A stretch of 64,000 bases of DNA from an uncultured Nitrososphaerota archaeon (GTDB lineage Archaea; Thermoproteota; Nitrososphaeria; Nitrososphaerales; Gagatemarchaeaceae), in the NCBI GenBank assembly GCA_963838925.1, contig CAWISW010000003.1:448001-512000 (forward strand). The letters run 5' to 3'. The notes under the pieces were generated by a model. It had not been told where the DNA came from and did not search any database. It saw nothing but the letters and a program-made list of their open reading frames with translations. The position numbers and the translations under genes are program-made. The first letter of the stretch is position 1; the number at the start of each line of letters is the position of its first letter. This document shows positions 20,403-41,879 of this stretch, in pieces.

Positions 20403-22433
20403 TTGTCCGGACCTTTTGAAGAGCTGTCGACTGAGCAAGAGAAGGCGTTTTCCCCGCCCATCAAGGAGATAATCCTCGAGAACTTCATGAGCTACGAGTA
20501 CGCCCGGATCCCGCTCAACCAGGGCCTCAACCTCATCGTCGGTCCCAACGGGGCGGGCAAGTCGTCCATCCTGCTCGCCATATCCGTGGCCTTCGGGCAG
20601 GCCTACACCGAGCGCTCGAGGAAGCTGAGCGACCTCATCAGGAGGGGCAAGGACATCGCAAGGGTCTCCCTAATCTTCGACAACCGGGTCAGGGAAGGGA
20701 AGAGGCCCATCCCATACTCAAAGGCCGACACCTTCATGCTCTCCCGCTACCTTCGGAAGGACGGCTCCTACTGGTACGAGGCCGACTACAAGGAGATAGA
20801 CAAGAGCGAGGTCGTGAGGCTCCTTCGCGAGTTCGGGATAAACCCCGACAACCTACTGATCATCATGCACCAGGGGATGATCGAGGAGCTGGGCGCGATC
20901 TCGCAGGAGCAGCGGCTCGTCATGGTGGAGGAGGCGGTGGGCTTCCGCGAGTACAGGGAGAGGATCCTCGCCGCGGAGGCGGACCTCAACAGCATGGTGA
21001 GCGAGGAGGGCTCGCTCGTCCAGCTCATCGACAACGCCAACCAGACGATAGAGTACTGGAAGCAGATCTACGACAGGTACCTTGAGAAGAAGAGGCTCGA
21101 GGAGCACAGGACCCTCCTCGAGAGGGAGCTGCTCTGGGCGCAGGAGGGGAAGCTCTCCCGTTCGCTTTCCTCGATGGCAGAGAGGCTGGAGGCAAAGCGC
21201 GAGTCGCTCGCCGACCTGAGGGAGCAGCAGAAGAAGGCCGGGGGCGAGGCGGAGGGGCACCGCAAGGCCCTGGGCGAGAGGCAGGTCGAGGTCAGGAAGC
21301 TCTACGGGGCTCTCATCAGGGCAGAGAGGGACCGCTCCGGACGCGAGTCCGCCCGCGAGGCGATGAAGGGGCTCCACGACGAGCTCGAGACGCTAACGAA
21401 GGACCTCGAGGAACTGGTGGGCAGCCCCAACGCGCTGGACTCGCGCAGGTCGAAGCGCATCAAGGAGTTCATCGAGTTCGCATCGAAGAAGTCTGGCAGC
21501 GACTCCGAGGAGGCCGGACGCAAGAAGACCGAGCTCGACAGGGAGGTCTCGTCTCTGCAGGCGGAAGTGAGCGGCGTCGAGGACGCGATAAGGAAGGTCA
21601 CCGACGATTACATCGCCCAGCGCGTGAGGTTCGAGGTCCTCGAGTACAGGACCAAGGTCACCGAGTCCGAGATCAGGGAGCTGGAGAGGTCGGAGAGGGA
21701 GGTCAGGGGAGAGCTCGACGCCATGAAGCCCGACCTGGAGAGGGCGGGCGAGAGGATAGTGACGCAGCGCGCGCCCTACGAGGTCTCCGAGGAGCTGAAG
21801 CTCGTCTCGGCCCAGCTGCAGAAGCTTCAGGACCTCCCCGACGACGCCGAGAAGATCTACAGGGACTACACGGGGAACCTCGAGGGCCTGAAGGGCAAGC
21901 TCGAGGAGCTCCAAGGCAACAAGAAGCTGATGCTGCTAGAGCTCGAGGAGAGGAAGAAGGCGTGGAAGAACGCCGTCCAGAGCCTCATCGACGAGGTCGC
22001 GCCCATCTACAAGCAGGTTCTCTCGACGGTCGGGGCGACGGGCGCCATCAGGCTGGACGAGGGAGGCTCCGTCGCCGAGGCCGGGCTTCAGCTCCTCGTC
22101 GGCTTCAAGGGCGCTGAGCCGGCGATCCTCGACCCTTACACGCAGAGCGGAGGCGAGAGGTCGGTCGCGCTGGTCGCGTTCATGTTGTCGCTCCAGAGCA
22201 GGATCATCTCTCCGCTGAGGGCCATGGACGAGTTCGACATCCACATGGACCCGCGCAACAGGGAGGCGATCTTCAAGATGATCCTCGCTCAGGGGAAGAG
22301 GAACCCCAACTCGCAGCACATCGTCATCACGCCGTCGATAATCTCCGTGGCGGACAGGACCGCCCACGTGATCACTGTCCAGTCTGTCCACGGCTCGTCC
22401 CAGGTGAAGGAGTATTCCGGCAGCAGAAGATAG
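20403..22433 (+). CDS. Short SMC-family ATPase with SMC5/6-like head (ClsN/Sph-like, no obvious hinge)
   Basis: LENFMSY, GPNGAGKSS, Q-loop MHQG, coiled coil, QSGGERSV, SPLRAMDEFDIHMDPRNR; 676 aa. Confidence 0.88.
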   Translation: MSGPFEELSTEQEKAFSPPIKEIILENFMSYEYARIPLNQGLNLIVGPNGAGKSSILLAISVAFGQAYTERSRKLSDLIRRGKDIARVSLIFDNRVREGKRPIPYSKADTFMLSRYLRKDGSYWYEADYKEIDKSEVVRLLREFGINPDNLLIIMHQGMIEELGAISQEQRLVMVEEAVGFREYRERILAAEADLNSMVSEEGSLVQLIDNANQTIEYWKQIYDRYLEKKRLEEHRTLLERELLWAQEGKLSRSLSSMAERLEAKRESLADLREQQKKAGGEAEGHRKALGERQVEVRKLYGALIRAERDRSGRESAREAMKGLHDELETLTKDLEELVGSPNALDSRRSKRIKEFIEFASKKSGSDSEEAGRKKTELDREVSSLQAEVSGVEDAIRKVTDDYIAQRVRFEVLEYRTKVTESEIRELERSEREVRGELDAMKPDLERAGERIVTQRAPYEVSEELKLVSAQLQKLQDLPDDAEKIYRDYTGNLEGLKGKLEELQGNKKLMLLELEERKKAWKNAVQSLIDEVAPIYKQVLSTVGATGAIRLDEGGSVAEAGLQLLVGFKGAEPAILDPYTQSGGERSVALVAFMLSLQSRIISPLRAMDEFDIHMDPRNREAIFKMILAQGKRNPNSQHIVITPSIISVADRTAHVITVQSVHGSSQVKEYSGSRR

Positions 22434-22458
22434 GGCTCGCGACAAGAAGCTCGAGGAC
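22414..22458 (+). pseudogene. Displaced native 5' stub of the kleisin gene (IPAAEDRARDKKLED)
   Basis: GCGACAAGAAGCTCGAGGAC versus GCGACAAGAAACTTGAAGAT in the intact gene (27188-27207), differing only at third positions; overlaps the smc stop; GGTGA upstream of an ATT. Confidence 0.55.
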
Positions 22459-22566
22459 GGGCTCTCCCGTGGAACCCTGAGGCGCGGCGGGAACCACGCC
22501 GGCTGCGGATGCGCCGTCGGCGAGCAGGGCGAGAGAGTCCACATCCAGCCGATTTCCGGAGCCTAG
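22441..22566 (+). pseudogene. tes: 3'-terminal fragment of tetraether lipid synthase (radical SAM)
   Basis: KKLEDGLSRGTLRRGGNHAGCGCAVGEQGERVHIQPISGA*, near-identical to 41402-41512. Confidence 0.7.
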
Positions 22567-22689
22567 ACAGGAAAGAACGAACCTCGCCGAGGGACTTTCC
22601 GTTGGCCAGGCTAGGGTCAAGGCAATCTTTGGGCGTCTAGGCGGAAGAATCGGAATCTTATTTCAGCGAAGTAGCAAGAATGAGCGAAT

Positions 22690-23123
22690 TTGCCGAATTA
22701 GTTAGATAAGGCGTAAATAATCGCGACGATGTTAATGCGAATAGGGCGATATGACTATTGGCAACTTGGTGCCAATGACGTCTGCTTACTCAGGATGGGG
22801 CGCGGTTGGTCGAGACCAAAAGAGCGGAGGAAAGCGAAGGTCGCATATCGAGGTCGAAGCCGCGATTCTCAGAGCGCTCGTTTCCGAGTATCTCACGATA
22901 AACCAGCTCGCGATCCGTGTGAACCTGAACAGAGTCCTTGCTAAGAACTATGTCAAGGAACTGTCTCAGAAAGGGCGGGTCGAAAGCAAGAAGACAAAAG
23001 GGCTCGCTAGGTACTCGGCCTCTCAGAACGGAGTCGCATGGTTGAAGCGCTTCGAGACCTTGGCAAGTAATCCGAGATACGGATTATAGATACCGGATGA
23101 TAGTTTCTGCCTGCCTTAACTAG
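22690..23123 (+). repeat. Approx. 430-bp module (promoter + wHTH gene + trailer), copy 1
   Basis: Aligns with 37558-37990 from ATTAGTTAGATAAGGC to TACCGGATGATAGTTTCTGCCTGC.TTAACTAG. Confidence 0.9.
22751..23089 (+). CDS. Archaeal winged-helix transcription regulator
   Basis: KRRSHIEV..AILRAL..LTINQLAIRVNLN..AK.YVKEL..KG..Y..SQNG..WL; paralogue at 37618. Confidence 0.8.
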   Translation: MTIGNLVPMTSAYSGWGAVGRDQKSGGKRRSHIEVEAAILRALVSEYLTINQLAIRVNLNRVLAKNYVKELSQKGRVESKKTKGLARYSASQNGVAWLKRFETLASNPRYGL

Positions 23124-23146
23124 TTGACAATTGCCTTTAAGCGCCA

Positions 23147-24481
23147 ATGATGCCAATTGCGCACTCGACGCGGTCGATAATCTTCCTAAGATCCTCAAAA
23201 ACAAAGAAAAGCTCGGTCTCGGCGCATGCGATGAGAACTGCGTTAACGATATCGGTATTGCTTTTGCTGGTCGCGGCTCGAACTCAACCAATTGGCGCAA
23301 CAACTTCGACGAGCTCCCACACACCAACTTCGAGATATGATGCAACTCGGGCGGCAAGCTCTATGGTTGCCGCGGAATCCTCAAACGTCTACGTCGGTAG
23401 CTACTCTGCGATTTCAGGTCTGAGTGTGCAATCTGGCGGGGCTCCGCTCTTCTGCGGCCCTATTTTTGTGTCAAGTTCAACTATTCTCAACCTGACCACG
23501 ACAAAGGAACCCGACACAGTGACATCTAACTCTAAGGAATGCTACTACCTCCCCACTTTCTACTATCCAAGTCACAGCGCAGATTCATTTTCGTCAGAGA
23601 GGCAGGCGACTTTCTATGTCGACAATTCGACCATGAAGGTGGCGCTTGTCATGGACACTGCGCGCGAACCTGTTTCATATTGGAAGTGCAGTTACTGCTG
23701 GTCTGGATATGAGGTAAAGTAGACAGCATATGCAGTCGCCTCCTATGTGGACGTCCCCTATGTATCCGACTCTTCTTCAAATGGATTTGTGGGCACTGTT
23801 AACAGCACACAATGCTGCATAGTTTCCACATGGGTCGGTGAGGGTGATGCGCAGGGCGCATCGGACAACAATTGGTCGCAAGACGGCTATGTCATCAACG
23901 ATGCCGGTGCATGGAGTCACTACGGCTATACCTACGGATTCTGGTATGCCTTCTTCCATGTAGGTGGAATCTCAACCGACAATGTCTTCGATCAATATTC
24001 AATGGATTCGTGTGTCAACGCAGGCGACAACGTCGAGAGCTACCTGGAGAAGGATGTTAGTGGCCTAAACTACCTCTATTGGGCAGAGATTGACGACCTG
24101 TCGAGTTCGAGTTGCAGCTTGACGACCGGCAACTACAACATGGACCTCAACTATGATTGGTCCTATGTGGAGTCCGAGGCCCCCAGCTACCACACGGACT
24201 CGGGAACGCCACCTCAACCGCAAACGGCGCAATGGCCATATTTCAATAACTACGCCCAAGCCTCTGCTTCGATGGGCATCTCCGCGGACGCATACGACTC
24301 AAGCTACACCGCGTATGGCTTCGACTCATCGACCGTAACAAACTATGGTAGCAACCCCACGCAAGGCGATTCCGCGTACACGCCTTGCGACAGTGATGAC
24401 AACTCTTATCCTAGCTCTTGGGCCTCGTCAACCACATTCTATGCCATGTATGGAGACAGTGAGTACGAAACGACGTGCTAG
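23147..24481 (+). pseudogene. Secreted G1-like glutamic peptidase interrupted by one in-frame TAG (23720-23722)
   Basis: ORFs 23147-23722 and 23747-24481 share a frame. Readthrough gives WSGYEVK*TAYAVASYVDVP..STWVG..SQDG..FWY..VNAGD..ESEAP; signal peptide from ATG 23231. Confidence 0.6.
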
Positions 24482-24530
24482 GAGTGACCACTGAACAAAG
24501 CATCCATATGGATCTCGATTAAAAATCGCC

Positions 24531-24947
24531 TTAAGCAGGAGTTTCTTGAAAGGCCGAAATCGTTTGGTAAAGAAATATTACGAACCCTATGAAGATTACG
24601 ATTAAGGGAAATATGTAGTAAGAGATTGCCGGGACCGGCGGTCGAAGGATCGTAAGCAGGAAGACGAGCGCGGCTCCGAAAAACGCGGAAAAAGTGCCGG
24701 ACAATGGAATGACCATTCGCCGGAATCGTATCATGTTCTCGAAAACCAAACGGTCCGCCACGTAACCATCACGTGTCTCCTGAATCAGGCCAAACCGTAA
24801 GAGCTTTTGAACGTGATATTCCGCAACAGATGGTGAGCTGAGTCCGAGGTTTCGATGAATGTCGGAAAGACGAATCGGACCACGTCTGTAAACATGGCGA
24901 TAGACCTTGAGAGTAGTTCCCGAAATAGCATCGTTTGCCGTGGGCAA
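24531..24947 (-). CDS. wHTH regulator with two C-terminal TM helices
   Basis: GTTLKVY..LGLSSPSVAEYHVQKL..GLI; paralogue of 60227-60679. Confidence 0.8.
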   Translation of the reverse strand: MPTANDAISGTTLKVYRHVYRRGPIRLSDIHRNLGLSSPSVAEYHVQKLLRFGLIQETRDGYVADRLVFENMIRFRRMVIPLSGTFSAFFGAALVFLLTILRPPVPAISYYIFPLIVIFIGFVIFLYQTISAFQETPA

Positions 24948-25095
24948 TCATCGGGTTAATTGTCGACGCGGGTATTTTGCCTTTCGAAGAGGCGCTCGAA
25001 GTCCTCTGAAGAGAAGGAATACATAACACGTTTGAATTATTCGCGGAGAGGATTTCTAAACCATAGCAATATACTCGTCCGCGAACGTTTCTAAA

Positions 25096-25773
25096 GTGAT
25101 GTCAGAATATCGACGACAACTCCTCACTGGGGTAGTCCTAGCAATACTACTCTCGGCACTTTTTGCGTTCGAATTGGAGTCGTACTTCTCACCTGCTAAG
25201 AGTAACGAACCCTCCCTAGCCAAATCCAGTTCCATAGATACAGATTTGGGACTCAATTTCACTTTGACCGCTAAACCTTCAAGTCTTCAAGAGGGAGATA
25301 ACGTGACGATTGGGGTGTATCTCTTCAACATACTTCCTTCGACTAACAACCTTACTTCTCCGACTTCAAATCTTTATTCGCTGGGGCCGTGTCCCACGAC
25401 TCTTCCGTTTTGGTTCGAAGTTATTCAGGGAAACTATGAGGCCGATAACATGTCTCAAGGGCAGCCGCTCGCATTGTGGCAGGCATACCCTTACTGCGCA
25501 AATAGCATTCCTGTCCAGAACTACTCGTTTGAAGTGCGCAGCGATAATGTAACTGTCGCACTTGCTACCACAACTCTTGGTGAGAAGCAAGTCATTTTTT
25601 CCGAATCTGCTTCCTACATCGACAGCTATTTTGGATCATGGGGAGTGCTGACCCATCCCGACTCGCGTTTCGCGTTGTTCCAACCTGGAGAGTACACGGT
25701 AGCGGCGGGAGACTCTTGGGGGCAAGAAGACATACTACATTTCCGAGTTGTGGCTACACGAACAAGCCCGTAG
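25096..25773 (+). CDS. Membrane-anchored extracellular protein
   Basis: N-terminal TM, Ig-like beta pattern, many N-x-S/T sequons, FQPGEYTVAAGDSWGQ. Confidence 0.7.
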   Translation: MMSEYRRQLLTGVVLAILLSALFAFELESYFSPAKSNEPSLAKSSSIDTDLGLNFTLTAKPSSLQEGDNVTIGVYLFNILPSTNNLTSPTSNLYSLGPCPTTLPFWFEVIQGNYEADNMSQGQPLALWQAYPYCANSIPVQNYSFEVRSDNVTVALATTTLGEKQVIFSESASYIDSYFGSWGVLTHPDSRFALFQPGEYTVAAGDSWGQEDILHFRVVATRTSP

Positions 25774-25898
25774 CCTCACCTCAGCATCGCACTCTTCTGC
25801 TTGTTCAAGGTAATACACGAGTGGCACCGCGACAAGATTCACCAAAAGTGCGGCTCCCGATTGAGGTGTAGATAGCTAAGAACGACAAGAAGCTCGAA
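25774..25898 (+). pseudogene. tes: Degraded tes fragment
   Basis: PHLSIALFCLFKVIHEWHRDKIHQKCG(frameshift)PIEV*IAKNDKKLE aligns with PDLRIIPFCSFNVIPEWYRDKIQQKYGLPIEAWEAKNGKKLE at 41288-41413. Confidence 0.7.
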
Positions 25899-25961
25899 AG
25901 GCAATTGCCTCGAACTAAGCTGAGGGTGGGTGCAGATATCCTAGCGCAATCTTGATTTGTA

Positions 25962-27059
25962 GTGCAATCCAAGCTGAAATGCGAGTCTCACCTCTCAACT
26001 AGTCGGAATGAAGGTGTGACCAATCTCGACCAATTTGTCGTCTATGAAACCAAGGGAGGTCCTTCTCATTACCTCCGCCTACGTGAACGCCTTTACAACT
26101 TTGGAAGAGAAGACATCATTGAGGCTCGAGTAGCAAGAACTTCAGCGCCAGAGAAAGAACTCCGTCTTTACACAAGTGCAAGCTACGCAGATCCCCACCT
26201 CAACGTCTCTCATCTGAATCCAGCTCCGCGCGAGTCATTCCGAATATTGTCTCTCAGGAAATTTGGCGTACCGCATTTTGTAGCGAACTTCAACCAGCAC
26301 AAGCCGAAAGCCTTTCGAAATATCACGCTCTCCTATTCCGATGGCATAGTCAACATGAAAGTCGAGAATTTGGTCGCAGTGATCAAGAATCCCAAGCTCA
26401 GCGCTCGCGGGCAAGGACCTATTCTTGAAGGAAGCATAATAGAAGGCACAAGACGCGGGAACATCCGAATCGCCCAAGAATCCGAATCTTTCAGTCTGCA
26501 CTTCGGGGACTATTCGACCAACCATCCCCGGATAGTTCACATGAAGGCTATCGAGTCTTACATCGAGGTCGGATACGTGCAGAGTTCGCACGAGTCTGAC
26601 TATCGCACGAGACGCGTTCCTGCTGTTTCCATCGGGCCCGCGAAAGGCAAATCCGAGGACGAAGTGAAGAACAGATTCACCGAGATAGACAGCAGCAACA
26701 TGACAAAGAAGGAGATAAGGGCTTGGATTGACACTGAAGGTAACATCTACTCGAGGGGTATGGACGGTAAATCTGGCCCTCAACTGGCTGTCACTCAGAA
26801 GCACAGGGAACCGTTGGATGTCTTTGCAAGGAGCGTTGTAGGGTTGGGAGTGAGGTGCAAAGTCTCGCGGGATGGGCATGCGTGTTACGTAGCCAAAATT
26901 ACCGACACCGAAGGAGTTGCCAAGATAATCAAAGAGGTTGGGCCGTTTCGAACTCCTCAGAAATGTGAACAGGTACGTCAGTTCGAGAAGATGTTGAAAA
27001 GAGAGAGAAAGGAAAGGAGACGAGTGATAGAAAGATCGAAGGCACTGTTGGACCTGTAG
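25962..27059 (+). CDS. Free-standing LAGLIDADG endonuclease with uncharacterised N-terminal domain
   Basis: EIRAWIDTEGNI..PQLAVTQK.REPL..F..LGV..YVAKIT..KII..V.PF..K is a single-motif LAGLIDADG pattern. Confidence 0.75.
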   Translation: MQSKLKCESHLSTSRNEGVTNLDQFVVYETKGGPSHYLRLRERLYNFGREDIIEARVARTSAPEKELRLYTSASYADPHLNVSHLNPAPRESFRILSLRKFGVPHFVANFNQHKPKAFRNITLSYSDGIVNMKVENLVAVIKNPKLSARGQGPILEGSIIEGTRRGNIRIAQESESFSLHFGDYSTNHPRIVHMKAIESYIEVGYVQSSHESDYRTRRVPAVSIGPAKGKSEDEVKNRFTEIDSSNMTKKEIRAWIDTEGNIYSRGMDGKSGPQLAVTQKHREPLDVFARSVVGLGVRCKVSRDGHACYVAKITDTEGVAKIIKEVGPFRTPQKCEQVRQFEKMLKRERKERRRVIERSKALLDL

Positions 27060-27091
27060 AGTTCTCCGTGGGCATTATCTTCGTGCCAAGC

Positions 27092-27099
27092 TTATAATA
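27092..27099 (+). promoter_or_regulatory. TATA-like box supplied by island A for kleisin-KITE genes
   Basis: TTATAATA about 40 nt upstream of ATG 27139. Confidence 0.45.
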
Positions 27100-27138
27100 C
27101 AAGTCGGTAAGCGCGGCTCATCATTAGGGCGATATGAG

Positions 27139-27933
27139 ATGGCAACTCGGGAGGGAACTCCGAATAGAGAGAGTAGAAAGGACTCAAGCGACAAGAAACT
27201 TGAAGATATATTGCGCTTGATTGAATTATGCCGCAATATCCAGTCGAGCAGCGTTAACCCCTTCGAGGTGGACATCAAGGAGAAGCTCTTGGTCCTAAAG
27301 AGGCACCTGCCCGAGTGGAATGTAATTGACGTGATGCTGAAGGATTCAGAGGCGATGCAACAACTTGTTGCGATAGTAAAGTTACAAGATCTGTACATTA
27401 AACACAGGGCCTCCGCGCTCTACATCGACCCTCTGCTCCTCGAGCTCAAGATAACGCTCATCACCAAGGAGGAGCTCGCGGAGAGCTTCGCAAAGTGCTG
27501 GCACCCCATCGCGCAGCTCGACCAGCTCACCCCGCGCGGCCTCGAGAAGGCCTTCGTCTACTGGCGGGAGCTCGTACCATTCAGCGAGAGGTTCAAGGAA
27601 CAGTTCGGGAACTACGGGGAGCCGACCGGGATGATAGGGCTCGAGGAGCTCGAGTCGTTGAGCATCTTCACGAAGGAGGAGTTCCAGACCAGGATCAACG
27701 CGATCACCAAGGAACTGGTGGAGAGGTGCGACGGCAAGGAGATAGACTACCGCGGTTTCATAAAGGGGAAGGACCCCGAGGAGACGGCCTTGCGGGGATA
27801 TCTCATAGCGTTCGTGGTCACCGAGGGGAGGGCCACGCTGAGGACCGACCCGCTCACCGAGCAGATCTTCATCTCGGTGATCGAAGGGAAGCCGGACGAC
27901 GAGACGAAATCGGTGGCGATCGTAGTCAGATGA
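27139..27933 (+). CDS. Kleisin (ScpA-like) subunit; first 88 codons recoded
   Basis: VNPFEVDI (ScpA DPWDIDI-like N-terminus) and C-terminal winged helix; position between SMC-like and KITE genes. Confidence 0.7.
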   Translation: MATREGTPNRESRKDSSDKKLEDILRLIELCRNIQSSSVNPFEVDIKEKLLVLKRHLPEWNVIDVMLKDSEAMQQLVAIVKLQDLYIKHRASALYIDPLLLELKITLITKEELAESFAKCWHPIAQLDQLTPRGLEKAFVYWRELVPFSERFKEQFGNYGEPTGMIGLEELESLSIFTKEEFQTRINAITKELVERCDGKEIDYRGFIKGKDPEETALRGYLIAFVVTEGRATLRTDPLTEQIFISVIEGKPDDETKSVAIVVR

Positions 27934-28541
27934 GCGACGTAGCGAGCCCGCCCGACGCTGCCAGCCCTCCGCACGAGGCCGCCGCAGAGAGGGCATCGCT
28001 CGACCGCAAGACCAGGAAGGCCTTCCAGGTCTTGATACTCCAGCGCGGAAGAAACCCCGGCGTCAAGGGATGGGAGATGCGAAGGTACCTCGGTAAAGAC
28101 TACAAGAAGATACTAGATGTCCTTTCGAACGACCTGAAGCCCCTCGGCCTCGAGGTCCACCTGGTGCCCGGCCCGGAGGGCACCGACGACTCCACGCGCT
28201 TCCTGCTCAGGTTCAGGGACCCTCCGACTCTGACCGAGGCGGAGACCGCGGGGTTCAGGATCGACGACCTCGCTGTCCTCGCGGCCACCATAGCCCTGGT
28301 CAACTCCAAGCAGGGGAGAATCTCTAGGAAGGAGCTCGAGAGCTTCCTCAAGACAAAGTTCCCGCGCTGGAGGATAGACTACTCGATCGACAGATACATC
28401 AAGCGGGGGTACATCGACCAGGACGACAAGGACCTCGTCCGCATCGGGTGGAGGACGAGGGCAGAGATAGACGAGAGGTCGTTGATGACGCTGATACTCG
28501 CTCAGGGGACACAGTCGAAGGCCGGAAGCGGCAAACAGTAG
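27930..28541 (+). CDS. KITE (ScpB/Nse1/Nse3-like tandem winged-helix) protein
   Basis: ATGA overlap with kleisin; two wH-like halves; YIKRGYI..IGWRTRAEI. Confidence 0.7.
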   Translation: MSDVASPPDAASPPHEAAAERASLDRKTRKAFQVLILQRGRNPGVKGWEMRRYLGKDYKKILDVLSNDLKPLGLEVHLVPGPEGTDDSTRFLLRFRDPPTLTEAETAGFRIDDLAVLAATIALVNSKQGRISRKELESFLKTKFPRWRIDYSIDRYIKRGYIDQDDKDLVRIGWRTRAEIDERSLMTLILAQGTQSKAGSGKQ

Positions 28542-33854: not shown

Positions 33855-34250
33855 TTATAAGCGTAATTGCGCGACGATGGCCAGTTCGGCAGAAGACCTG
33901 AACAGGTTGGCCATCACCGGCTCCAGTGAGCAAGTTACCGGGTTGACCTTCAGACGCAGCGTCTCCAACGTGGTCACTCCGAGCAGGAGTTCGTCTCCCG
34001 GCCCCACCATTACGGGAATCGCTCTTCTGGATGACCCATATTCGACTCTGGCGTCAGCGAGGCCGGCCTCCTTGACACTGCCGTCTGCGAGCTTGACGCG
34101 GATTACCTCGTTGGGAACGATTCCTAACCTTCTGGCGAGCGAAGGCGAAATCTTCGTGTAGAGGGCGCCGGTGTCAACCAGCATCTCGACATCCTCGTTG
34201 CCCTTCTCGCCTTGCAAGCGCACAGTCGCCCAAGTCTCGCCCATCTTCAT
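33855..34250 (-). CDS. Clan AA (retropepsin-like) aspartic protease
   Basis: LVDTGA, LADG, LLGVTTLE.L.L.VNP. Confidence 0.85.
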   Translation of the reverse strand: MKMGETWATVRLQGEKGNEDVEMLVDTGALYTKISPSLARRLGIVPNEVIRVKLADGSVKEAGLADARVEYGSSRRAIPVMVGPGDELLLGVTTLETLRLKVNPVTCSLEPVMANLFRSSAELAIVAQLRL

Positions 34251-34369
34251 TGGTCACCAGTGGAGACAGTCCGCAGATAAATATTAACGCCAATGAGTCG
34301 CGTCAGAGCCAAGTCGCCAGCCATCTCCCAAACTTATATCATGTGGCGCGGACGGCGCCTCCGGAAAAC

Positions 34370-35371
34370 ATGGCAAGGATGTGGCACGACGACGACGTCA
34401 GTTTGGGGCCGATAAAGGGCGAAACGATCGCTGTCATCGGCTACGGTATCCAAGGAGCGGCCCAGGCGAGCAACCTGAGGGACTCAGGGCTAAAGGTGGT
34501 CGTGGGGCTGCGCGAGGGAGGGAAGAGCTGGGCCAAGGCCAAGAAGGAGGGCCACAAGGTCATGACCGTCCCCGACGCGGTGAAGGCGGCGGATTTGGTC
34601 CATGTGCTGATTCCTGATATGCAACAAGCCCGCACCTTCAAGGAAGAGATTCGTCCGTATCTGAAGAAGGACATGGCTCTCTCCTTCTCGCATGGCGCAG
34701 CAATCCATTGGAAGTGGATAGTTCCCCCAAAAAACGTCGACGTAATCATGCTCGCTCCAAAAGCACCAGGGCAGAGAGTGAGAGAGCTTTACCTTGAAAA
34801 CTTTGGCACACCGGCGCTCGTTGCGGTCTACCAAGACGCAACTGGAAGAGCTTGGGACAGAATACTGGGGATGGCGAAGGGCGTCGGGACGACGAGGGCT
34901 GGCGTTCTGGAGACGACCTTCCGGGAGGAGACCGAGACGGATTGGTTCGGAGAACAAGTCGATCTCTGCGGCGGGTCGCACCGGATGATCTTGAGCGCAT
35001 TCGAGACTTTGGTCGAAGCAGGTTATTCCCCTGAAGGGGCTTACTTCGAAGTCCTGCACGAACTCAAGCTCATCGTGGACTTGATGCAAAAATACGGGAT
35101 TGCAGGCATGTATCGCAGAGTTAGCGAAACCGCGAGATATGGTGGTCTGACTAGGGGGCAAGTTGCCATCGGACCCGAGGTCAAGAAGAACATGAAGAAG
35201 GTCCTCAAGGAGATACAGAGCGGCAAGTTCGCGAAGGAATGGGTCAGCGTCTACGAGAAGGAGGGGGAGAAGAGCTTCGGCAAGTACATGGCTGAATTGG
35301 ACAAACACCAAATCGAGGTCGTGGGCAGGAAGCTGCGGAAGATGATGTGGCCCAACGACCAAGTGACGTAA
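34370..35371 (+). CDS. ilvC: Ketol-acid reductoisomerase; mosaic, recoded from about 34592
   Basis: IGYGIQG..QA.NLRDSG, LIPD, FSHG, APKAPG, ETETDWFGEQ, YFEVLHELKLIVDL, SETARYG; TATA-like CTTATAT upstream. Confidence 0.96.
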   Translation: MARMWHDDDVSLGPIKGETIAVIGYGIQGAAQASNLRDSGLKVVVGLREGGKSWAKAKKEGHKVMTVPDAVKAADLVHVLIPDMQQARTFKEEIRPYLKKDMALSFSHGAAIHWKWIVPPKNVDVIMLAPKAPGQRVRELYLENFGTPALVAVYQDATGRAWDRILGMAKGVGTTRAGVLETTFREETETDWFGEQVDLCGGSHRMILSAFETLVEAGYSPEGAYFEVLHELKLIVDLMQKYGIAGMYRRVSETARYGGLTRGQVAIGPEVKKNMKKVLKEIQSGKFAKEWVSVYEKEGEKSFGKYMAELDKHQIEVVGRKLRKMMWPNDQVT

Positions 35372-35401
35372 TTCTTCAGAAGCTCTCTAGCCAAAGACGC
35401 G

Positions 35402-37057
35402 CTATTCCTTTGGCCACACTTTTCGAAGGTGTAGCTCGCCTGTCGAGTTCGCACAATCCCAATCGAGTAAGGCCGCATAGGCCCCCTTGACCTTTCGAGT
35501 TTCCGGCCCAATATCGTAATTCTTGTACTGCCCCAACTGGATGCTTGCTTGTTTGAAGGCCGGTTCTAGGTAAGTCCACCACTTGTGCTCGAAGAAATAC
35601 AAGTCGCTCGAGGATTCTCGCCGCATCAAGCTGTCTGGACCAGGATACGTCGACCCCATCTGCCATTGGCCTTCTGAGCTGGGATGTCTCCGCACCTCTA
35701 TCCAGCCAGCATGAGACAAAATAGCGGGGTTAATCTCCTCGGCCACCTTGCCTTTCTCAGCGATTATTTCGTATTTGCTTTCGGCATGCGAAAGACGGGA
35801 GTTTACGTGATTCTGCACCGACGAATCCACCTCAAACGAAAAGCGATTCTCCGTCCCCTCTTCCTTCGAAAGCAGCCTCACCTTGTCGATAATCAGGCCA
35901 GTCTTGAACTGCTCAATTTCCTGACGAAGAGAGGCTCTCGCCGCAGTCACTTCTCTTTCCTTGGGGACGAAGACAAACTTCAAACGATCTCGAGTTGCGA
36001 TGAATCTGCTGATTTTTCCGGTCCCGTCATACGCTGCCCTCGAATGTTCGCCATCGAACCAGAACCTGAATTGCCTTTTTCCCTCTTGAAACCGTGCAAC
36101 CAGAAGTACTTCGAGGCTGTAAGAATCCAGATGAGAATCTTTGAAGGGGAAAAAGTGGCCATCGACCTTTAGGCCCAACGTATTTTCTCGGAAGCTCAGT
36201 CTAGCATTTTTCATGTCTTCCTGTCTATGACTATTGAAGTCTTTGATGAACTGTTCTTGGGAATATGCCCTGACAGTCAGCAGTTCAAACAAATCCCCCT
36301 GCTTTCCCCCGAGCTTGCCTACACGGAGGTGAACAATTTTGCTCTCTCTATTGAGCTGCATTTCCCCGAAGACTTTCCTTGTCAGGTTCTCAGACGCGGA
36401 AAGGCTTCGTATTCCCAGTTCTAGTATTCCTCTCCTGTCTTTCGAAAAGCGCTCGTGAGGCAAGCCGGCCGATTCCAACGCAGCTTGTCTAAAGGTCAGC
36501 TGAGGCCAACCACGGATGGTCTCAACTCTGAATGACTTTCTTTGCTCGATGGAGATGAGTACGATCTTGTAGCTTTCGCGAGCCTTGAGATTCTGCCTGT
36601 ACTCGAAGGGAGCATACAAGAAGATACATTTTCTCTTTGCTCCGATGTGCATCGCATCGAAGCTCCCGACGCCTTCGATTCTACCCTTGATGCTGTATAC
36701 CCTGCCCACCCGTAGATGGAAACCAGCTGCTTTCTCGAACGCAGACTGCAATATTCGAAACCTGAAATTTCCGTCAACAGTTGCCATTCTAGATGCTCTG
36801 GCAGTAAAGATTCCAAGGTATTGGTCTCTGCTCTTTGAAGTGCTTCCGACGGCGATAGCGGATTCATGCTCAGGGGTGTGCCTACTCATTCCTTCATCTG
36901 AATCAGGCGCGGATTTCACAGCCGCAGATTGGGATCCAGTGTCGGGGCGAACCGAAGAAATCGAGGGTTCGACGGGAGGGACCGGAGACAGCGCAGCATC
37001 TGAGACTCGTATTCCCAACTTTGGAGTCGCAGTTATGGACGAGATAACATCGGCCAT
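35402..37057 (-). CDS. Putative PD-(D/E)XK endonuclease with N-terminal domain shared with the LAGLIDADG protein
   Basis: KGKVAEE..GPDSL..YFFEHKW..A..QLGQY catalytic pattern; true start may be downstream of 37057. Confidence 0.68.
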   Translation of the reverse strand: MADVISSITATPKLGIRVSDAALSPVPPVEPSISSVRPDTGSQSAAVKSAPDSDEGMSRHTPEHESAIAVGSTSKSRDQYLGIFTARASRMATVDGNFRFRILQSAFEKAAGFHLRVGRVYSIKGRIEGVGSFDAMHIGAKRKCIFLYAPFEYRQNLKARESYKIVLISIEQRKSFRVETIRGWPQLTFRQAALESAGLPHERFSKDRRGILELGIRSLSASENLTRKVFGEMQLNRESKIVHLRVGKLGGKQGDLFELLTVRAYSQEQFIKDFNSHRQEDMKNARLSFRENTLGLKVDGHFFPFKDSHLDSYSLEVLLVARFQEGKRQFRFWFDGEHSRAAYDGTGKISRFIATRDRLKFVFVPKEREVTAARASLRQEIEQFKTGLIIDKVRLLSKEEGTENRFSFEVDSSVQNHVNSRLSHAESKYEIIAEKGKVAEEINPAILSHAGWIEVRRHPSSEGQWQMGSTYPGPDSLMRRESSSDLYFFEHKWWTYLEPAFKQASIQLGQYKNYDIGPETRKVKGAYAALLDWDCANSTGELHLRKVWPKE

Positions 37058-37203
37058 CGTAACGGGGTAACGGAGACAGGGCGGGGTAGAAGGAAAACGG
37101 AGGTGAGGCAGGAAGGAGGATAGGAGAACACAACGGGGCAGTGAAGGTCGGAGACGAAAAATGAACGTGAGATGATACGTTACCTTCGCATAAAAGCATA
37201 TGT

Positions 37204-37315
37204 TTGACTAGTCTCCACTTAACGCAACGTCAACAATCGCGTTGACATCAGAGAGTCTCATCGTGTCAAATGTCTGATAGTCAATTCGCAAAATCATGTC
37301 AAGTAGATAGTTGAC
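37204..37315. promoter_or_regulatory. GTCAA-N8-TTGAC palindrome array
   Basis: Full sites at 37229-37246 and 37298-37315; half sites at 37204, 37265 and 37280. Confidence 0.5.
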
Positions 37316-37423
37316 TCTGGGAAAAGCGAATCTTGCAATGAATTGCTATTCTTGGAACTAGAATTTCCAGCTCTATGATTGGCTAAAAGCCGTTTGTGTG
37401 GACCTCGCTCTCATGACGACTCA

Positions 37424-37470
37424 TAGCAAAGAGGAGGAATTCCGCAGGTAGCCGATTATGGGGACCAAGA
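37424..37470 (+). pseudogene. tes: Heavily degraded tes 3'-terminal remnant
   Basis: GAGGAATTCCGCAGGTAGCCGATT versus GAGGAAGTCCACATCCAGCCGATT (41489-41512), 19/24 identical; the following sequence resembles 22574-22600. Confidence 0.45.
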
Positions 37471-37557
37471 GAACAAGCATTCGCCCCGGGTGATTTCTTG
37501 AGGGTAGAGGATATTGAGGGGAAACAATTCGCCAATAGGAGAGAAGAATCGGCGCAA

Positions 37558-37990
37558 TTGCCAGATTAGTTAGATAAGGCATAAATAATCGCGACTACGT
37601 TAATGCAAATAGGTCTCATGACTATTGGCAATCTCGTGCCAATGACGTTTTCCTACTCCGCATGGGGCACAGCGGATGAAGATCGAAAGAACAGAGGAAA
37701 GCGAAGGTCGCACATCGAGGTTCAGGCATCGATTCTCAGGGCGCTCGCTTCCGAGTATCTCACGATAAACCAGCTTGCAATCCGCGTGAACCTGAACAGG
37801 GTTCTCGCCAAGACCTACGTAAAAGAGCTGTCACAGAAAGGACGGATCGAGAGCAAGAAGATGAAAGGGCTGGAGAGATACTCCGCCACGCAGAGCGGAG
37901 TCGCCTGGCTGAAGCGCTTCGAGACCTTGGTCCGTGATTAGAGATACGGATTCTAGTTACCGGATGATAGTTTCTGCCTGCTTTAACTAG
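37558..37990 (+). repeat. Approx. 430-bp wHTH module, copy 2
   Basis: Aligns with 22690-23123. Confidence 0.9.
37618..37941 (+). CDS. Archaeal winged-helix transcription regulator
   Basis: Near-identical core to 22751-23089 (SEYLTINQLAIRVNLNRVLAK). Confidence 0.8.
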   Translation: MTIGNLVPMTFSYSAWGTADEDRKNRGKRRSHIEVQASILRALASEYLTINQLAIRVNLNRVLAKTYVKELSQKGRIESKKMKGLERYSATQSGVAWLKRFETLVRD

Positions 37991-38029
37991 GCGCGCTGAA
38001 ATCTATACGTCTGAGTATGTGACTGCTTA

Positions 38030-39760
38030 ATGGTCGTCTATGATCGGAAAGCGCTGACCGCAAAAACTGGTTTGAACGCCGCAATCACACTTTCCATCCT
38101 CTCTCTGTTGATTCTCTCAAGAGGACTTCCGAGCCAAAGTCTCGTGTTTGGCTACCCTTCAACCGCATCATCCGTGCCTCCGAAGCCGGTTGTTCTCGGG
38201 GCGGCCACGGGCTTTGGGGCTGTTGCTGGTCTGGGAGTCAATAACAGCGGTGATTCGAAAGTTGCGGGAAATCTTGGTTCTACCGGCCCAATCACAGGAT
38301 TTCCGCCTGGGAACGTGACGGGTACAATACACTCTGACGACTCGCTCGCTCATCAAGCAACTGACGATTTGGCAAGGTCGTACGGTGCACTCTCAGAGGA
38401 TTCATGCAACGTGGAACTGGCAAGCCAGAACTTGGCGGGACTAGATCTCCAACCAGGAGTATACTGCTATTCCTCGGGGGCATTATTGTCAGGAACGCTC
38501 ACGCTCAACCCAAATCATGATGCTAACGCCATGTATGTCTTCGAGATAGGTGGCGGGTTAACCCTATCGAATGACTCCCAGATTACAATGATAGGTGGCG
38601 ACGGATGCAACGTCTTTTGGGAAATTAGTGGCACCACGTTCATCGGTGCTCAAACCACGTTCGCCGGAAGTATACTATCAGCGGGCAATATCATGATGGG
38701 TGCTGGCGCGAACATCACGGGGGCAGCAATGTCCGAACACGGTTCTTTGGTGATGCATTCCGATTCTGTCGGTGCCCAGTGTTCTAGTTACATGTGGAAG
38801 CATCAGGTAGCGGCCACCAGCGCAGGGACAACAGGTTGCTTCCAGGTCTCCTATCCTAGTGCAGAGTGGGTGAGCGAACCTTGTCTGTACCATGTTGGCC
38901 AACCGCATACCGTTGGCCCTCCAGTCGGAGGTTGCGACACTGAGACCAGCACAGGGACGTGCGATTATGCGGGAAAGAGCAGTGGAACTCTGATCAACCA
39001 TGCCGAGGACAGCTTCCTAACTGGAGGTGGTTACAGCGTTAATGGAATCAGTGGCTCCTGCTCAGCTGGCACTCGGGAATATGACCAATCAAGCGGAGAC
39101 AACTGCGCATACTCAATCCAATTGAATTCGAATAGATGGGTGATTTCGGGGATATGTGGGACGGGAACCAATGCTTGCTGGGGTTGGGAGCAATTCGTGT
39201 TTACGAGTGATTACACTCAGGCTAGTTACTACGTAGACGTGGAACTGGAGGTAATCAATTACGAGAACTACTACGGCTCTGGAAGTTGCAGCAACCTCGG
39301 AACAGACTGGGGTTATGTTGGCGCGGGGAACTGTGGAACCTTCGAGATCAAGTTGGGGGTGACCAGCGCCGCCGAAGTCGATCCGGCGAATTCTCCATCA
39401 GCGTTCAGCTCTCTCTACATAGACGCGGCGGTAGCCTCTAGCGGTAACGACCTCGCTAACGTCTGCGACAGTTCACAATGTTGGGAGAACACCGTGCCCG
39501 ATAATCTGTTTCCAACGGGGTACAACCTCGTCAACGAATGGACCTACGAAGAATACAATGTATTTGGATCAGGCGGAGGCGACGAAGCCATCTGGAATAC
39601 TGGAACCAACATGACCATTTACGGGAACATGTATGACTCTAGCGGCAGCTTAATTTCGGACTCGTGTACTCAGTTCAGCGACACGGGCGAGAGTAGCAAT
39701 CTCGGAGCCGGCACATGCACCGCGGGTACTGGAACCTGGCATTTCACAGAAACGGCGTGA
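38030..39760 (+). CDS. Secreted DUF3494 ice-binding-like domain fused to a Cys-rich thermopsin-like domain
   Basis: Signal/TM; V.LGAA..F..AG, ITGFPPG..TGTIH, L.PGVYC, GTLTL, NVFW, F.GSIL (DUF3494); then YSIQLNSN, WEQFV, VFGSGGG, DTGESSNL. Confidence 0.75.
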   Translation: MVVYDRKALTAKTGLNAAITLSILSLLILSRGLPSQSLVFGYPSTASSVPPKPVVLGAATGFGAVAGLGVNNSGDSKVAGNLGSTGPITGFPPGNVTGTIHSDDSLAHQATDDLARSYGALSEDSCNVELASQNLAGLDLQPGVYCYSSGALLSGTLTLNPNHDANAMYVFEIGGGLTLSNDSQITMIGGDGCNVFWEISGTTFIGAQTTFAGSILSAGNIMMGAGANITGAAMSEHGSLVMHSDSVGAQCSSYMWKHQVAATSAGTTGCFQVSYPSAEWVSEPCLYHVGQPHTVGPPVGGCDTETSTGTCDYAGKSSGTLINHAEDSFLTGGGYSVNGISGSCSAGTREYDQSSGDNCAYSIQLNSNRWVISGICGTGTNACWGWEQFVFTSDYTQASYYVDVELEVINYENYYGSGSCSNLGTDWGYVGAGNCGTFEIKLGVTSAAEVDPANSPSAFSSLYIDAAVASSGNDLANVCDSSQCWENTVPDNLFPTGYNLVNEWTYEEYNVFGSGGGDEAIWNTGTNMTIYGNMYDSSGSLISDSCTQFSDTGESSNLGAGTCTAGTGTWHFTETA

Positions 39761-39909
39761 GAAGTCATTGATTGATGAATGGACGACCTGGATGCCCAGG
39801 CAACCGATGCGGGTGGCATTTCGGATTCGGTCGAAGATCCTTCAATATCACTTCAGCAAAGTCCCAGTGCATCTCTTATTAGAAACCTGAGCCCGTCTTC
39901 TATCTTGGG

Positions 39910-41196
39910 TTGGAGTTCTTGTCAGGGCATCGAAACCATTCTGAGTCGAATCGCACATGGATTGTGGTCGCGGGTACTGTCGCGGCGGGCCTCATCGCCT
40001 CGGGTCTGCTACTTGCGCCTTCGCTAGGAGCTGTACGAACGGTGACGCAAACGGTTACGTCGACATCGACAGAGACGCTGACGTCGATTTCCTCTTCTCT
40101 AAATAATTCTACTTCCCCAACCCACATCGGTGCAAGTATCCTCGCGAACATTACTGTCGGGACTGATCCTCAAACCCCTCTATTCGATTCAATGAATGGG
40201 GACCTATACGTGCCTAATCATAGCTCCGACGATATCTCCGTCATCTCGGGAGCGACTAACTCATTAGTAGCTACGGTGAAAGTTGGCTCTAGCCCCACCA
40301 CACCTGCACTGGACCCGACCAATGGGCAAGTATACGTCCCGAACGAAGGCTCAGAGAGTGTCTCCGTAATTTCTGGAGTAACAAACGTCGTTATCGCGAC
40401 GATACGAGTAGGTTCTGATCCCCGTACTCCCGTCTTCGATCCCACCAACGACGACATGTACGTCGCCGACCGGCTTTCGGGCGAAGCCTCGGTGATATCT
40501 GGGACCACAAACACTGTTGTCTCAACCATAACCTTCGCGGCTAATCCGCTCCCTCCTGCCTTCGACCAAATCACTCGCGACCTTTACTTTCCCGTCTCGA
40601 ATGGCACAATGTATGACACCATTGCCGTCGTATCAGGTGACACCAACACGCTTGTAGCAAGTGTGCTAGTGGGGCCTGTCCCGTGGACACCTGCCTTCAA
40701 TCCTCTAAACGGAGACATCTACGTTCCAGTATCGGGCCTCCCGGGGCGGCCGAATGACACGGTTTCGGTGATAGACGGAGAGACCAACAATGTGGTCGCG
40801 ACGGACGAGGTCGGTACTTCCCCGTACACGCCAGTCGTAGACTTGGCAAATGGAGAAATCTTCGTTCCTCATCTTAATGCAGATAACATTCCAATCTCAA
40901 TCCTTTCCGGGAAAACGAATTCGGTTGTCGGATTTTTGGCGATTGGCAATGGCTCGCAAACGACGTTGTTTGATCATGTTTCCGGAAACCTTTGGGTTTT
41001 CGGATTTGCTGCAGGCTCAATCACAATGTTAGTCATGGGACAGGACAACTTCGTCGCCACAATCGGGTTACCAAACGGCGAAGGCCGGGGCCTTGGGATT
41101 GGTGTGTCGACACCAGCGATTGACACGACAAACGGAGACATCTATGTACCCGCTGGAGCCTGCATCCTGGTTATTGGGCCTTCAACCGGGGACTGA
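39910..41196 (+). CDS. Membrane-anchored YVTN/YncE-like beta-propeller protein
   Basis: TM plus Thr/Ser linker, then about seven repeats of VG..P.TP..D..NG..YVPN..S..VSVISG.TN.VVAT. Confidence 0.85.
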   Translation: MEFLSGHRNHSESNRTWIVVAGTVAAGLIASGLLLAPSLGAVRTVTQTVTSTSTETLTSISSSLNNSTSPTHIGASILANITVGTDPQTPLFDSMNGDLYVPNHSSDDISVISGATNSLVATVKVGSSPTTPALDPTNGQVYVPNEGSESVSVISGVTNVVIATIRVGSDPRTPVFDPTNDDMYVADRLSGEASVISGTTNTVVSTITFAANPLPPAFDQITRDLYFPVSNGTMYDTIAVVSGDTNTLVASVLVGPVPWTPAFNPLNGDIYVPVSGLPGRPNDTVSVIDGETNNVVATDEVGTSPYTPVVDLANGEIFVPHLNADNIPISILSGKTNSVVGFLAIGNGSQTTLFDHVSGNLWVFGFAAGSITMLVMGQDNFVATIGLPNGEGRGLGIGVSTPAIDTTNGDIYVPAGACILVIGPSTGD

Positions 41197-41236
41197 CGGC
41201 AAAAACGACTCTTCCGGGTATAGAGGCAACTGGAAT

Positions 41237-41513
41237 TACAATCAGGACGAGGAGCGCCTACAGCGCTGCGACATCCACTACCTCACTCCTGACCTGAGGA
41301 TCATCCCCTTCTGCAGCTTCAACGTCATCCCCGAATGGTACAGGGACAAGATCCAGCAAAAGTATGGACTGCCAATCGAGGCCTGGGAAGCGAAGAACGG
41401 CAAGAAGCTCGAGGACGGCCTCTACCGTGGGACCTTGAGGCGGGGCGGCCACCACGCCGGCTGCGGCTGCGCAATAGGCGAGCAGGGCGAGGAAGTCCAC
41501 ATCCAGCCGATTA
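41237..41513 (+). pseudogene. tes: 3' fragment of tetraether lipid synthase (GDGT-MAS, radical SAM)
   Basis: YNQDEERLQRCDIHYLTPDLRIIPFCSFNVIPEWYRDKIQQKY matches the recalled Tes C-terminal motif (YNxDxERxxRCxIHYxTPDxRIIPFC); host-like codons; no start or radical SAM core. Confidence 0.78.
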
Positions 41514-41570
41514 ACGGACTTAATAGGCCGTCAAAAGCAAGTCAAAAAGATAAACAGATGGGAATCGTAG

Positions 41571-41879
41571 CTGAAGCTCATCGTCGACCTGGTCCAGAAA
41601 TACGGGATCTCCGGGATGTATCGCAGAGTGAGCGAGACCGCGAGATACGGCGGCCTGACGCGAGGGCAGCGGGCCATCGGCCCTGAGGTGAAGAAGGGTA
41701 TGAAGAAGGACCTCAAGGAGATCCAGGACGGGACCTTCGCGAAGGAGTGGGTCAGCGTTTACAACAAGGAGGGCCAAAAGTCATTCCAGAAGTACATGGA
41801 CAAGCTGGAAGCCCACCAGATCGAGAAGGTGGGGAAGAAACTCCGGAAGATGATGTGGCCCAACGACCAGGTAACCTGA
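41571..41879 (+). pseudogene. ilvC: Displaced 3' stub of ilvC (102 codons)
   Basis: LKLIVDL..WPNDQVT*; 16 aa differences from the intact copy; no 5' part. Confidence 0.92.

Follow-up and report, generated by a model that had tools for sequence, protein, structure and literature searches.

A probable free-standing homing endonuclease cassette with 5'-end replacement in the smc–kleisin operon of a soil archaeon

The smc–kleisin operon of an uncultured Nitrososphaerota archaeon contains AT-rich DNA that carries a free-standing LAGLIDADG-type gene and a recoded kleisin 5' end. We analysed a 64,000-nucleotide (nt) window (G000:C3:448001-512000) of a metagenome-assembled genome (MAG) that spans 1.84 Mb in 3 contigs and is 87% complete. 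G000 denotes this genome; G-numbers and L-numbers denote the genomes and loci compared. Native DNA has a GC content of ~0.60–0.65, versus ~0.49 over positions ~22560–27400. A preliminary description had treated 22414–27402 as one island, island A, that replaces the kleisin 5' end and leaves the native start behind. The operon genes and the parts of the cassette lie as follows, in window positions.

20403–22433, + strand: short SMC-family ATPase gene (smc), native, 676 amino acids (aa), Pfam SMC_N match at 1.3e-34; upstream partner of kleisin.
22414–22458, + strand: native kleisin start stub, ATT to DKKLED, overlapping the smc stop; homology to G020 extends to 22458.
25962–27059, + strand: putative free-standing LAGLIDADG-type homing endonuclease gene (HEG), 365 aa, recognized by its fold and an invariant motif.
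27092–27099, + strand: TATA-like box TTATAATA, 40 nt ahead of the ATG that now starts kleisin; box and flanks conserved in G020.
27139–27933, + strand: kleisin gene, 264 aa, codons 1–88 cassette-borne and codons 89–264 native.
27139–27402, + strand: cassette-borne recoded kleisin 5' end, codons 1–88, 36 of 88 ending in A or T; new N-terminus in codons 1–17.
27403–27933, + strand: native 3' kleisin part, codons 89–264, including the C-terminal winged-helix domain; 18 of 176 codons ending in A or T; 88–90% nt identity to G022.
27930–28541, + strand: third operon gene, 203 aa, ScpB/kite-like by position only; directly after kleisin in relatives too.

The first 88 kleisin codons are set apart from the rest of the gene by codon usage and by divergence. 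A or T ends 36 of codons 1–88, 6 of the following 66 and 18 of the 176 codons in the rest of the gene (Fisher p = 2.5e-8), a recount that exactly equals the earlier hand count of 36/88 against about 6/66. Across 2778 windows of 88 codons taken from five flanking native genes, the highest count is 31, short of 36. AT-richness is bimodal, with codons 1–~33 and ~58–88 AT-rich and codons ~36–55 native-like. Against relatives that lack the HEG, codons 24–88 of the G000 gene have a saturated proportion of synonymous differences (pS 0.70–0.82) and a low proportion of non-synonymous ones (pN 0.08–0.13); pS over codons 89–264 is 0.36–0.44. Identity to G022 is 69–72% in two cassette-type blocks and 88–90% elsewhere. 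The cassette-type 5' end is common to G000 and G020 (92–93% identity), which form a clade with 99/97 support on a long stem of 0.15 in the 5' kleisin tree.

The new 5' end is preceded by a promoter-like element of its own. The island had been said to supply a new TATA box at 27092, and TTATAATA is present there as a putative promoter. The HEG stop (27057–27059) lies 79 nt before the kleisin ATG at 27139, in line with the ~80 nt first given. In G007 (L029 2150-2340, minus strand), the HEG and the recoded kleisin copy share ~45 nt at the 3' end of the former, and the first ATG/GTG/TTG-type codon of the copy is a GTG at about residue 45.

Relatives without the insert begin kleisin within the end of smc. 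Our search found kleisin in 27 of 41 genomes including G000, and in 19 of the 22 other genomes of the genus. An SMC_N protein is encoded directly upstream in 24 of the 26 relatives' loci, with a conserved third gene downstream. The smc 3' end likewise abuts or overlaps the kleisin start in 24 of 26 other loci, the exceptions being G020 (smc on another contig) and G007 (a ~1.1-kb gap between smc and kleisin). Native starts within the close clade have the form (I/M)P(A/T)AEDRERDKKLEDILRL.., after AGGTGA-AGGAGT and overlapping the smc stop; HEG-free relatives overall start (I/M/L)P.AEDRERDKKLEDILRL and have GC-rich 5' ends. The preliminary description had expected island-free relatives to start with an M-P-A-A-E-D-like sequence overlapping smc, and they do (M/I/L-P-A-A-E-D-like), with no separate promoter region; the contrary arrangement that it had named, an AT-rich 5' end with a separate promoter, was not seen in them. 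The comparison of G/C-ending codons that it had proposed also came out as predicted: they number 53–69 of 71 over codons 18–88 in same-genus genes without the insert, versus 44/71 in G000, 42/71 in G020 and 44/71 in G007, the HEG-bearing genes.

The start position itself is variable among relatives (kleisin starts of L004, L005, L006 and L022; also L012 and L013). Its codon is ATG in 2 genomes, TTG in 8 of the genus, ATT in 4 HEG-free genomes and TCG in G002 and G013, these last two with no canonical start nearby. In every relative it follows AGGTGA-AGGAGT and lies 17–20 nt before the smc stop. This position suggests translation coupled to smc, or non-canonical initiation. In G022 (L003, G022:C22), the smc and kleisin frames run on without a stop as one 1049-aa open frame, with the junction near locus position 1497–1516; this could be either a natural SMC–kleisin fusion or an assembly indel error.

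A remnant of the native kleisin start lies at the smc stop in G000. The positions given earlier for the GGTGA (22403–22407), the ATT (22414), the smc stop (TAG, 22431–22433) and the TATA box all proved accurate. From 22414 the stub agrees in sequence with relatives' native starts, such as IPAAEDRERDKKLED in G017. The claim that the native start was left as a stub holds in so far as it matches relatives' starts and longer stubs exist elsewhere; the supporting evidence drawn from its DKKLED codons does not. The stub is kleisin-type over 22414–22443, and its remaining section is shared with a remnant of a tes gene: the run AAGAAGCTCGAGGAC (22444–22458) doubles as the beginning of a tes 3' remnant reaching 22566, an overlap about which the preliminary description had itself cautioned. 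Since the DKKLED codons belong to the tes remnant as well, their GC-rich synonyms are ambiguous and, taken alone, weak evidence of a stub. Nor is the ATT, remarked on earlier as standing where an ATG would be expected, the mark of a decayed start: four intact HEG-free kleisin genes carry ATT there. Stub codons 1–7 overlap the smc coding end and would be retained in any case, and just ~10 nt (22434–22443) of the G000 stub are both kleisin-specific and outside smc. Longer, unambiguous stubs in G020, G007 and a metagenome locus, L054, secure the reading. Those of G020 and L054 read ..DKKLEDILRLIELC (..ILRLIELC) and that of G007 reads ..DRKLEDILRLIEL (..ILRLIEL), after which each diverges.

The gene upstream of the new kleisin start encodes a putative LAGLIDADG homing endonuclease. 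Its 365-aa product combines N-terminal beta-rich domains with one C-terminal LAGLIDADG domain in an AlphaFold2 (AF2) model with a predicted local distance difference test score (pLDDT) of 81.8. Structure comparison matches residues ~241–357 to LAGLIDADG endonucleases at Z 8.3–10.9, including PI-PfuI (10.9), I-CreI (1af5, 10.1), I-CvuI (9.8), I-TnaI (9.8), I-MsoI (9.4) and I-DmoI (8.7). Foldseek gives a probability of 1.00 with a whole-protein E of ~5e-3, and Pfam LAGLIDADG_3 matches at E 0.0086, below its cut-off. The motif EIRAWIDTEG, which includes E259, is invariant in 17 sequences, as are Q279 and K280 (QK) and R282; we take E259 to be the counterpart of the catalytic Asp of I-CreI. A dN/dS of ~0.12 between G000 and G020 indicates purifying selection on the HEG. 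The G020 homologue (L042 2340-3290; L028 1-700) apparently has, at its N-terminus, a long extra stretch that is acidic and of low complexity and at which the assembly breaks between contigs C29 and C77, and database homologues of 517 and 624 aa have N-terminal extensions like it.

The HEG is patchily distributed and sits at the same site in all four loci. Of the 23 genomes of the genus, three have full-length homologues (G000; G020, 81% aa identity; G007, 46%); these are just the three genomes with AT-rich kleisin starts, and they span both main clades. Four other genus genomes have weak partial matches. On metagenome contig L054, a 46% identical homologue directly follows an smc whose protein is 92% identical to that of G000. 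All four HEGs are directly downstream of smc, and the three loci long enough to show it have kleisin next; in G007 the HEG stands alone between the two genes as a ~1.1-kb insert. A database search returned 19 clusters of HEG homologues, all unnamed.

HEG lineages are far more divergent than their hosts. smc is 79–87% identical among hosts in nucleotides versus 43–48% aa identity among HEG lineages; in their smc 3' ends, L054 (86.7%) and G020 (87.3%) are about equally close to G000, with HEG identities of 46% versus 81%. These sequence comparisons suggest transfer. Runs of cassette-type alleles around codons 24–33 are found in 3 of 10 HEG-free genes, extending over 7 consecutive diagnostic sites in L007 (the mosaic allele of G019), 4 in L006 and 3 in L004. 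Such runs are expected after HEG loss by recombination between stub and new copy, or from repeated break repair or gene conversion.

The stub ends point to a probable insertion point. Those of G020, G007 and L054 all fall at kleisin codon 30/31, despite HEG lineages 43–48% identical, and on this basis insertion and probable cleavage are placed at codon 31/32. The target had been described as a broad span, native codons 15–90; this single point is the likelier. In the new copies of G000 and G020, the left half of the candidate site reads ATT GAA TTA versus native ATC GAG CTC, a synonymous change. The stubs lack its right half, and no HEG-bearing chromosome keeps the site intact. A 22-bp pseudo-palindrome centred at codon 23/24, the best found (6–9 of 11 pairs in six native genes), was considered as the HEG target and rejected, as it is intact in the G020, G007 and L054 stubs. 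This sequence, with the core GAGGAC/ATCCTC (kleisin codons 20–27 in HEG-free relatives such as L003 and L005; stub 22447–22458), sits exactly where the G000 stub is truncated, adjoining a 15-nt direct repeat, and may be relevant to the insertion of the cargo described next.

Island A is composite, judged by its sequence: an HEG cassette core at ~25.9–27.4 kb and a separate cargo at 22440–25897. The preliminary description had taken the 5 kb as one unit. G007, G020 and L054 show the replacement without the cargo, so the HEG cassette alone appears to do the replacing. The cargo region comprises these features.

22440–22454, + strand: left copy of a 15-nt direct repeat, CGACAAGAAGCTCGA, flanking the cargo.
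22440–22566, + strand: tes 3' remnant, distal half, to the tes-frame stop; 84–87% identical to four contiguous tes copies in the genome.
22567–25773, no strand: AT-rich cargo, GC ~0.49, absent from the G020, G007 and L054 loci.
22751–23089, + strand: winged helix-turn-helix (wHTH) gene, cargo.
23147–23722, + strand: cargo open reading frame (ORF) without a Pfam family match.
23747–24481, + strand: cargo ORF without a Pfam family match.
24531–24947, − strand: helix-turn-helix (HTH)-membrane ORF, cargo.
25096–25773, + strand: cargo ORF without a Pfam family match.
25774–25897, + strand: tes 3' remnant, proximal half, from blastn to contiguous tes copies; ends in the right repeat copy.
25883–25897, + strand: right copy of the 15-nt direct repeat, from the junction alignment.

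The 3.4-kb cargo ends in the two tes halves, which together make up a circularly permuted tes 3' end. The gene encodes tetraether lipid synthase, and the copy in island B, a second island of the window, matches NCBIfam Tes models at 1.8e-18. Direct repeats stand at both ends of the cargo only, with tes permuted around them, and the bases to the left of the first repeat, CGC GAC, are of kleisin type, against AAC GGC in tes copies. Pfam matches in the cargo are HTH_45 (4.6e-7) and HTH_27 (6.7e-4), and the remaining cargo ORFs have none. Searches of six island A proteins, a 551-aa protein of island B and 14 ORFs near other tes remnants with Pfam and NCBIfam found no recombinase or integrase family. 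Entry of the cargo by circle recombination, as the permutation would suggest, is the least secure step of our account. Contiguous tes 3' remnants number at least four in the genome, alongside a split one and several shorter fragments; remnant sites are G000:C2:198-8973, G000:C3:441344-441600 and window positions 22440–22566, 25774–25897 and 41200–41560. No full-length tes ORF was found around them in the stretches examined, and an AbiEii-family ORF lies near one.

We propose that the operon probably carries a free-standing HEG cassette with 5'-end replacement, spread by homing. The cassette would consist of a spacer, the HEG, the TATA-like promoter and its own kleisin 5' copy, placed at codon 31/32. 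Fusion of the recoded copy in frame to the native gene leaves the kleisin protein intact, and what is left of the original start, codons 1–31, would be a dead stub across the smc stop. The endonuclease would cut HEG-free kleisin alleles at or near codon 31/32, and repair of the break from an HEG-bearing copy would carry over the cassette together with flanking sequence downstream, here up to about codon 88. Chromosomes with the HEG would be immune, the stub lacking the right half-site and the new copy having a synonymously changed left half. In G000, a second element, circular and bearing a tes 3' fragment, would then have recombined with the stub at a chance 15-nt identity in the KKLE codons, removing stub codons 24–31.

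Other origins of this arrangement fit less of the evidence. An assembly or binning artefact, with foreign low-GC DNA misjoined into the contig, is scarcely credible: the genome is indeed a three-contig MAG at 87% completeness and the region is low in GC, but the same architecture occurs in three other assemblies. Contigs from public runs also match the window with 0 differences over 22238–22889, 25864–26357 and 26708–27337, spanning three junctions (left, repeat/HEG and HEG/kleisin), and with 6 differences over 27285–27572; the runs are possibly the source sample, so these contigs do not count as independent support. No joint skipping the island was found among them. The contig of a co-occurring relative matches G000 only from 27404 on, with native-type sequence before, which fits a replacement boundary at ~27402. 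It is also very unlikely that the whole of island A (22.4–27.4 kb) is one integrative element, with an attachment (att) site that includes the kleisin 5' end and the LAGLIDADG gene as cargo. Elements that target tRNA genes do use an attachment site including a copy of the gene end; the 15-nt repeat and permuted tes would mean that at least part of the island entered as a circle, and related wHTH genes and tes remnants are present in both islands of the window. Yet Pfam and NCBIfam revealed no integrase or recombinase in island A, in the 14 ORFs at two other tes clusters or in the one island B ORF searched, and the repeat brackets only 22440–25897, not the HEG or the new kleisin end. G007, G020 and L054 have both replacement and stub without the cargo, and integration at the repeat would have kept codons 24–88 native, which they are not.

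A fixed, domesticated insertion is the alternative that draws most on the same data: a single ancient event followed by vertical inheritance and many losses, the protein inactive or a WhiA-like regulator and the AT-rich 5' end a product of drift. We regard it as unlikely. The HEG is co-oriented with the operon and a single origin would account for the stub ending alike in all loci, but drift cannot account for saturated pS with low pN in codons 24–88 only; the catalytic-position acid and QK are invariant in 17 sequences under a dN/dS of ~0.12; HEGs only 43–48% identical sit in hosts whose smc genes are 79–87% identical in nucleotides; the HEG is present in 3 of 23 genus genomes across both main clades; and HEG-free genes contain cassette-type tracts. 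Several results nonetheless weigh against the homing cassette, some of them in favour of domestication. WhiA, a non-nuclease with the LAGLIDADG fold, reaches Z 10.9 in the same search, equal to the nucleases, so the fold points to nuclease activity without establishing it. Separate trees for the two kleisin parts had been proposed in the preliminary description; the 3' tree joins G000 and G020 as the 5' tree does, though weakly (71/41). An approximately unbiased (AU) test on 814 nt of smc does not reject the pair as sisters (p 0.40), and no conflict between HEG and host trees is evident for them. Their HEG dS (0.78) resembles their kleisin 3' dS (0.71), and the two may simply have inherited the cassette vertically. 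The candidate cleavage site is read from the stub ends at codon 30/31 in three loci; a single-domain LAGLIDADG enzyme is expected to act as a homodimer, and in a scan for 22-bp pseudo-palindromes at codon 31/32 none stands out (2–6 of 11 pairs). In the new kleisin copy of G007, no ATG, GTG or TTG precedes the conserved LCEAVQSSS region, and genomic contexts were covered for 4 among the 19 homologue clusters. Stub codons 24–31, sought to the right of the second repeat, gave no alignment above shuffled controls, so that cargo insertion needs an extra deletion step. In the 3' tree, L007 has a very long branch, which is put down to its third gene lying elsewhere in the locus.

The identities of the operon genes rest on profiles, a model and gene order. 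The 676-aa partner of the kleisin-like protein is unusually short for an SMC-family ATPase; NCBIfam SMC models match it below their cut-off. Neither the 264-aa kleisin nor the 203-aa third protein has a Pfam or NCBIfam match. A profile of 11 kleisin homologues matches EID3 (E 0.0013) and Nse4 (E 0.025–0.069) in their C-terminal domains, making these Smc5/6 kleisins, not ScpA, the nearest by profile. The kleisin model has a mean pLDDT of 51.6, with a helix-helix-helix-strand-strand fold at residues 179–247 (pLDDT 67–87) and helical N-terminal two thirds below 60. Given profile matches at E 0.0013–0.069, a single confident C-terminal winged helix and no family match, membership of the kleisin (Nse4/ScpA) superfamily is a reasonable but tentative assignment. 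Of 19 genera sampled across the order, 8 have the smc/kleisin/third-gene set.

Island B presents the opposite arrangement at ilvC. It occupies window positions 34250–41876, and at its far end lies a native ilvC 3' stub (41571–41876, residues 272–373, 84% aa identity), in keeping with the earlier claim that island A is its mirror image. The ilvC 3' end has AT-rich codon patches. Island B also contains the following.

35402–37057, − strand: ORF of 551 aa, no Pfam match.
37603–37941: wHTH paralogue, followed by large secreted-looking ORFs.
41200–41560: contiguous tes 3' remnant, adjoining the ilvC stub region.

The 551-aa protein shares an 87-residue segment with the N-terminal region of the HEG product (E 2e-8) and has a different C-terminal domain. 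It is also homologous over ~400 residues (E 6e-32) to a 628-aa protein of another genus (G424; L071:1445-3331, minus strand), which has no Pfam match and whose gene sits among duplicated HicB-like fragments. A C-terminal D...E-x-K pattern, PD-(D/E)xK-like by eye, aligns between these two proteins. Three further contexts of the N-terminal module (G357, G060 and G073) showed no duplicated gene ends in the stretches covered.

These likenesses leave room for a broader idea, which we hold to be possible though somewhat doubtful: that a modular family of chromosomal gene-end replacement cassettes, sharing an N-terminal DNA-binding module and serving cargo, exists in these soil archaea. The module would be joined to a LAGLIDADG domain at kleisin, for 5'-end replacement, or to a PD-(D/E)xK-like domain at ilvC, for 3'-end replacement; what a cassette delivers would be a recoded end for an essential gene, complete with promoter or stop signals. 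Cargo genes would land in the cassettes and travel with them, and the scattered tes 3' remnants would be the fossil record of repeated tes invasions. The kleisin locus would then show empty sensitive, occupied and empty resistant stages within one genus.

In archaea, homing endonucleases have been described in rRNA introns and inteins, insertions that splicing conceals. The kleisin-locus enzyme shares fold (Z 7.7–10.9) and archaeal host with I-DmoI, I-Vdi141I, I-Tsp061I and PI-PfuI. Those rRNA-intron and intein enzymes are embedded in self-splicing elements that restore the product at the RNA or protein level; the kleisin HEG, in contrast, comes without a splicing element, and its target gene is kept whole by a duplicated, recoded end. 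Free-standing phage endonucleases of the T4 Seg/Mob type, which are GIY-YIG or HNH enzymes encoded in intergenic DNA, practise intronless homing: they cut the allele that lacks their gene, with co-conversion of flanks. The kleisin HEG resembles them in lying between genes and in its proposed spread with co-converted flanks, and differs in duplicating and recoding a gene end and leaving a stub; to our knowledge Seg/Mob-type enzymes do none of these.

The closest likeness is to the mobile ORFs (mORFs) of fungal mitochondria, described in PMC3630166 for atp6 of Allomyces macrogynus (as cited there) and for atp6, atp9, cox2 and nad3 of Glomus sp. In those accounts, a LAGLIDADG or GIY-YIG ORF brings in a foreign C-terminal piece and displaces the native C-terminus, which persists unexpressed further downstream; the inserted end is far more divergent in DNA than in protein (PMC3630166). 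The 'N-terminal duplication' of PMC7315562 duplicates a downstream exon and is hence of mORF type. The kleisin locus shares with mORFs a free-standing endonuclease ORF, an in-frame duplicated gene end and a native end left beside it. The HEG adjoins the duplicated kleisin end, G000 has recoded copy and stub, G020, G007 and L054 have unambiguous stubs, and presence is patchy at one site (3 of 23 genomes and one contig, all after smc). The differences are that mORFs, as there described, replace the 3' end and C-terminus whereas the kleisin cassette replaces the 5' end, and so must also bring a start codon and promoter; that the host DNA is an archaeal chromosome, not an organelle; and that the enzyme has a large extra N-terminal domain. 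An mORF-like 3'-type arrangement is also in the window, at ilvC. A literature search on free-standing LAGLIDADG genes in archaea, N-terminal duplication and mobile ORFs found no archaeal or 5'-end case.

Gene-end replacement of this kind has until now been known mainly from fungal mitochondria, and the kleisin locus would extend the mORF strategy to a prokaryotic chromosome, in the opposite orientation. Insertion at the 5' end uncouples kleisin from its upstream operon partner: the operon is rewired, with kleisin losing its translational overlap with smc and gaining a promoter-like box. Cassettes of this type make mosaic genes, by which phylogenies and gene callers can be misled. The family supplies new LAGLIDADG scaffolds with an extra, putative DNA-binding domain. 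With occupied, empty and apparently ex-occupied alleles side by side, the genus offers a natural case for the cycle of homing-gene gain and loss.

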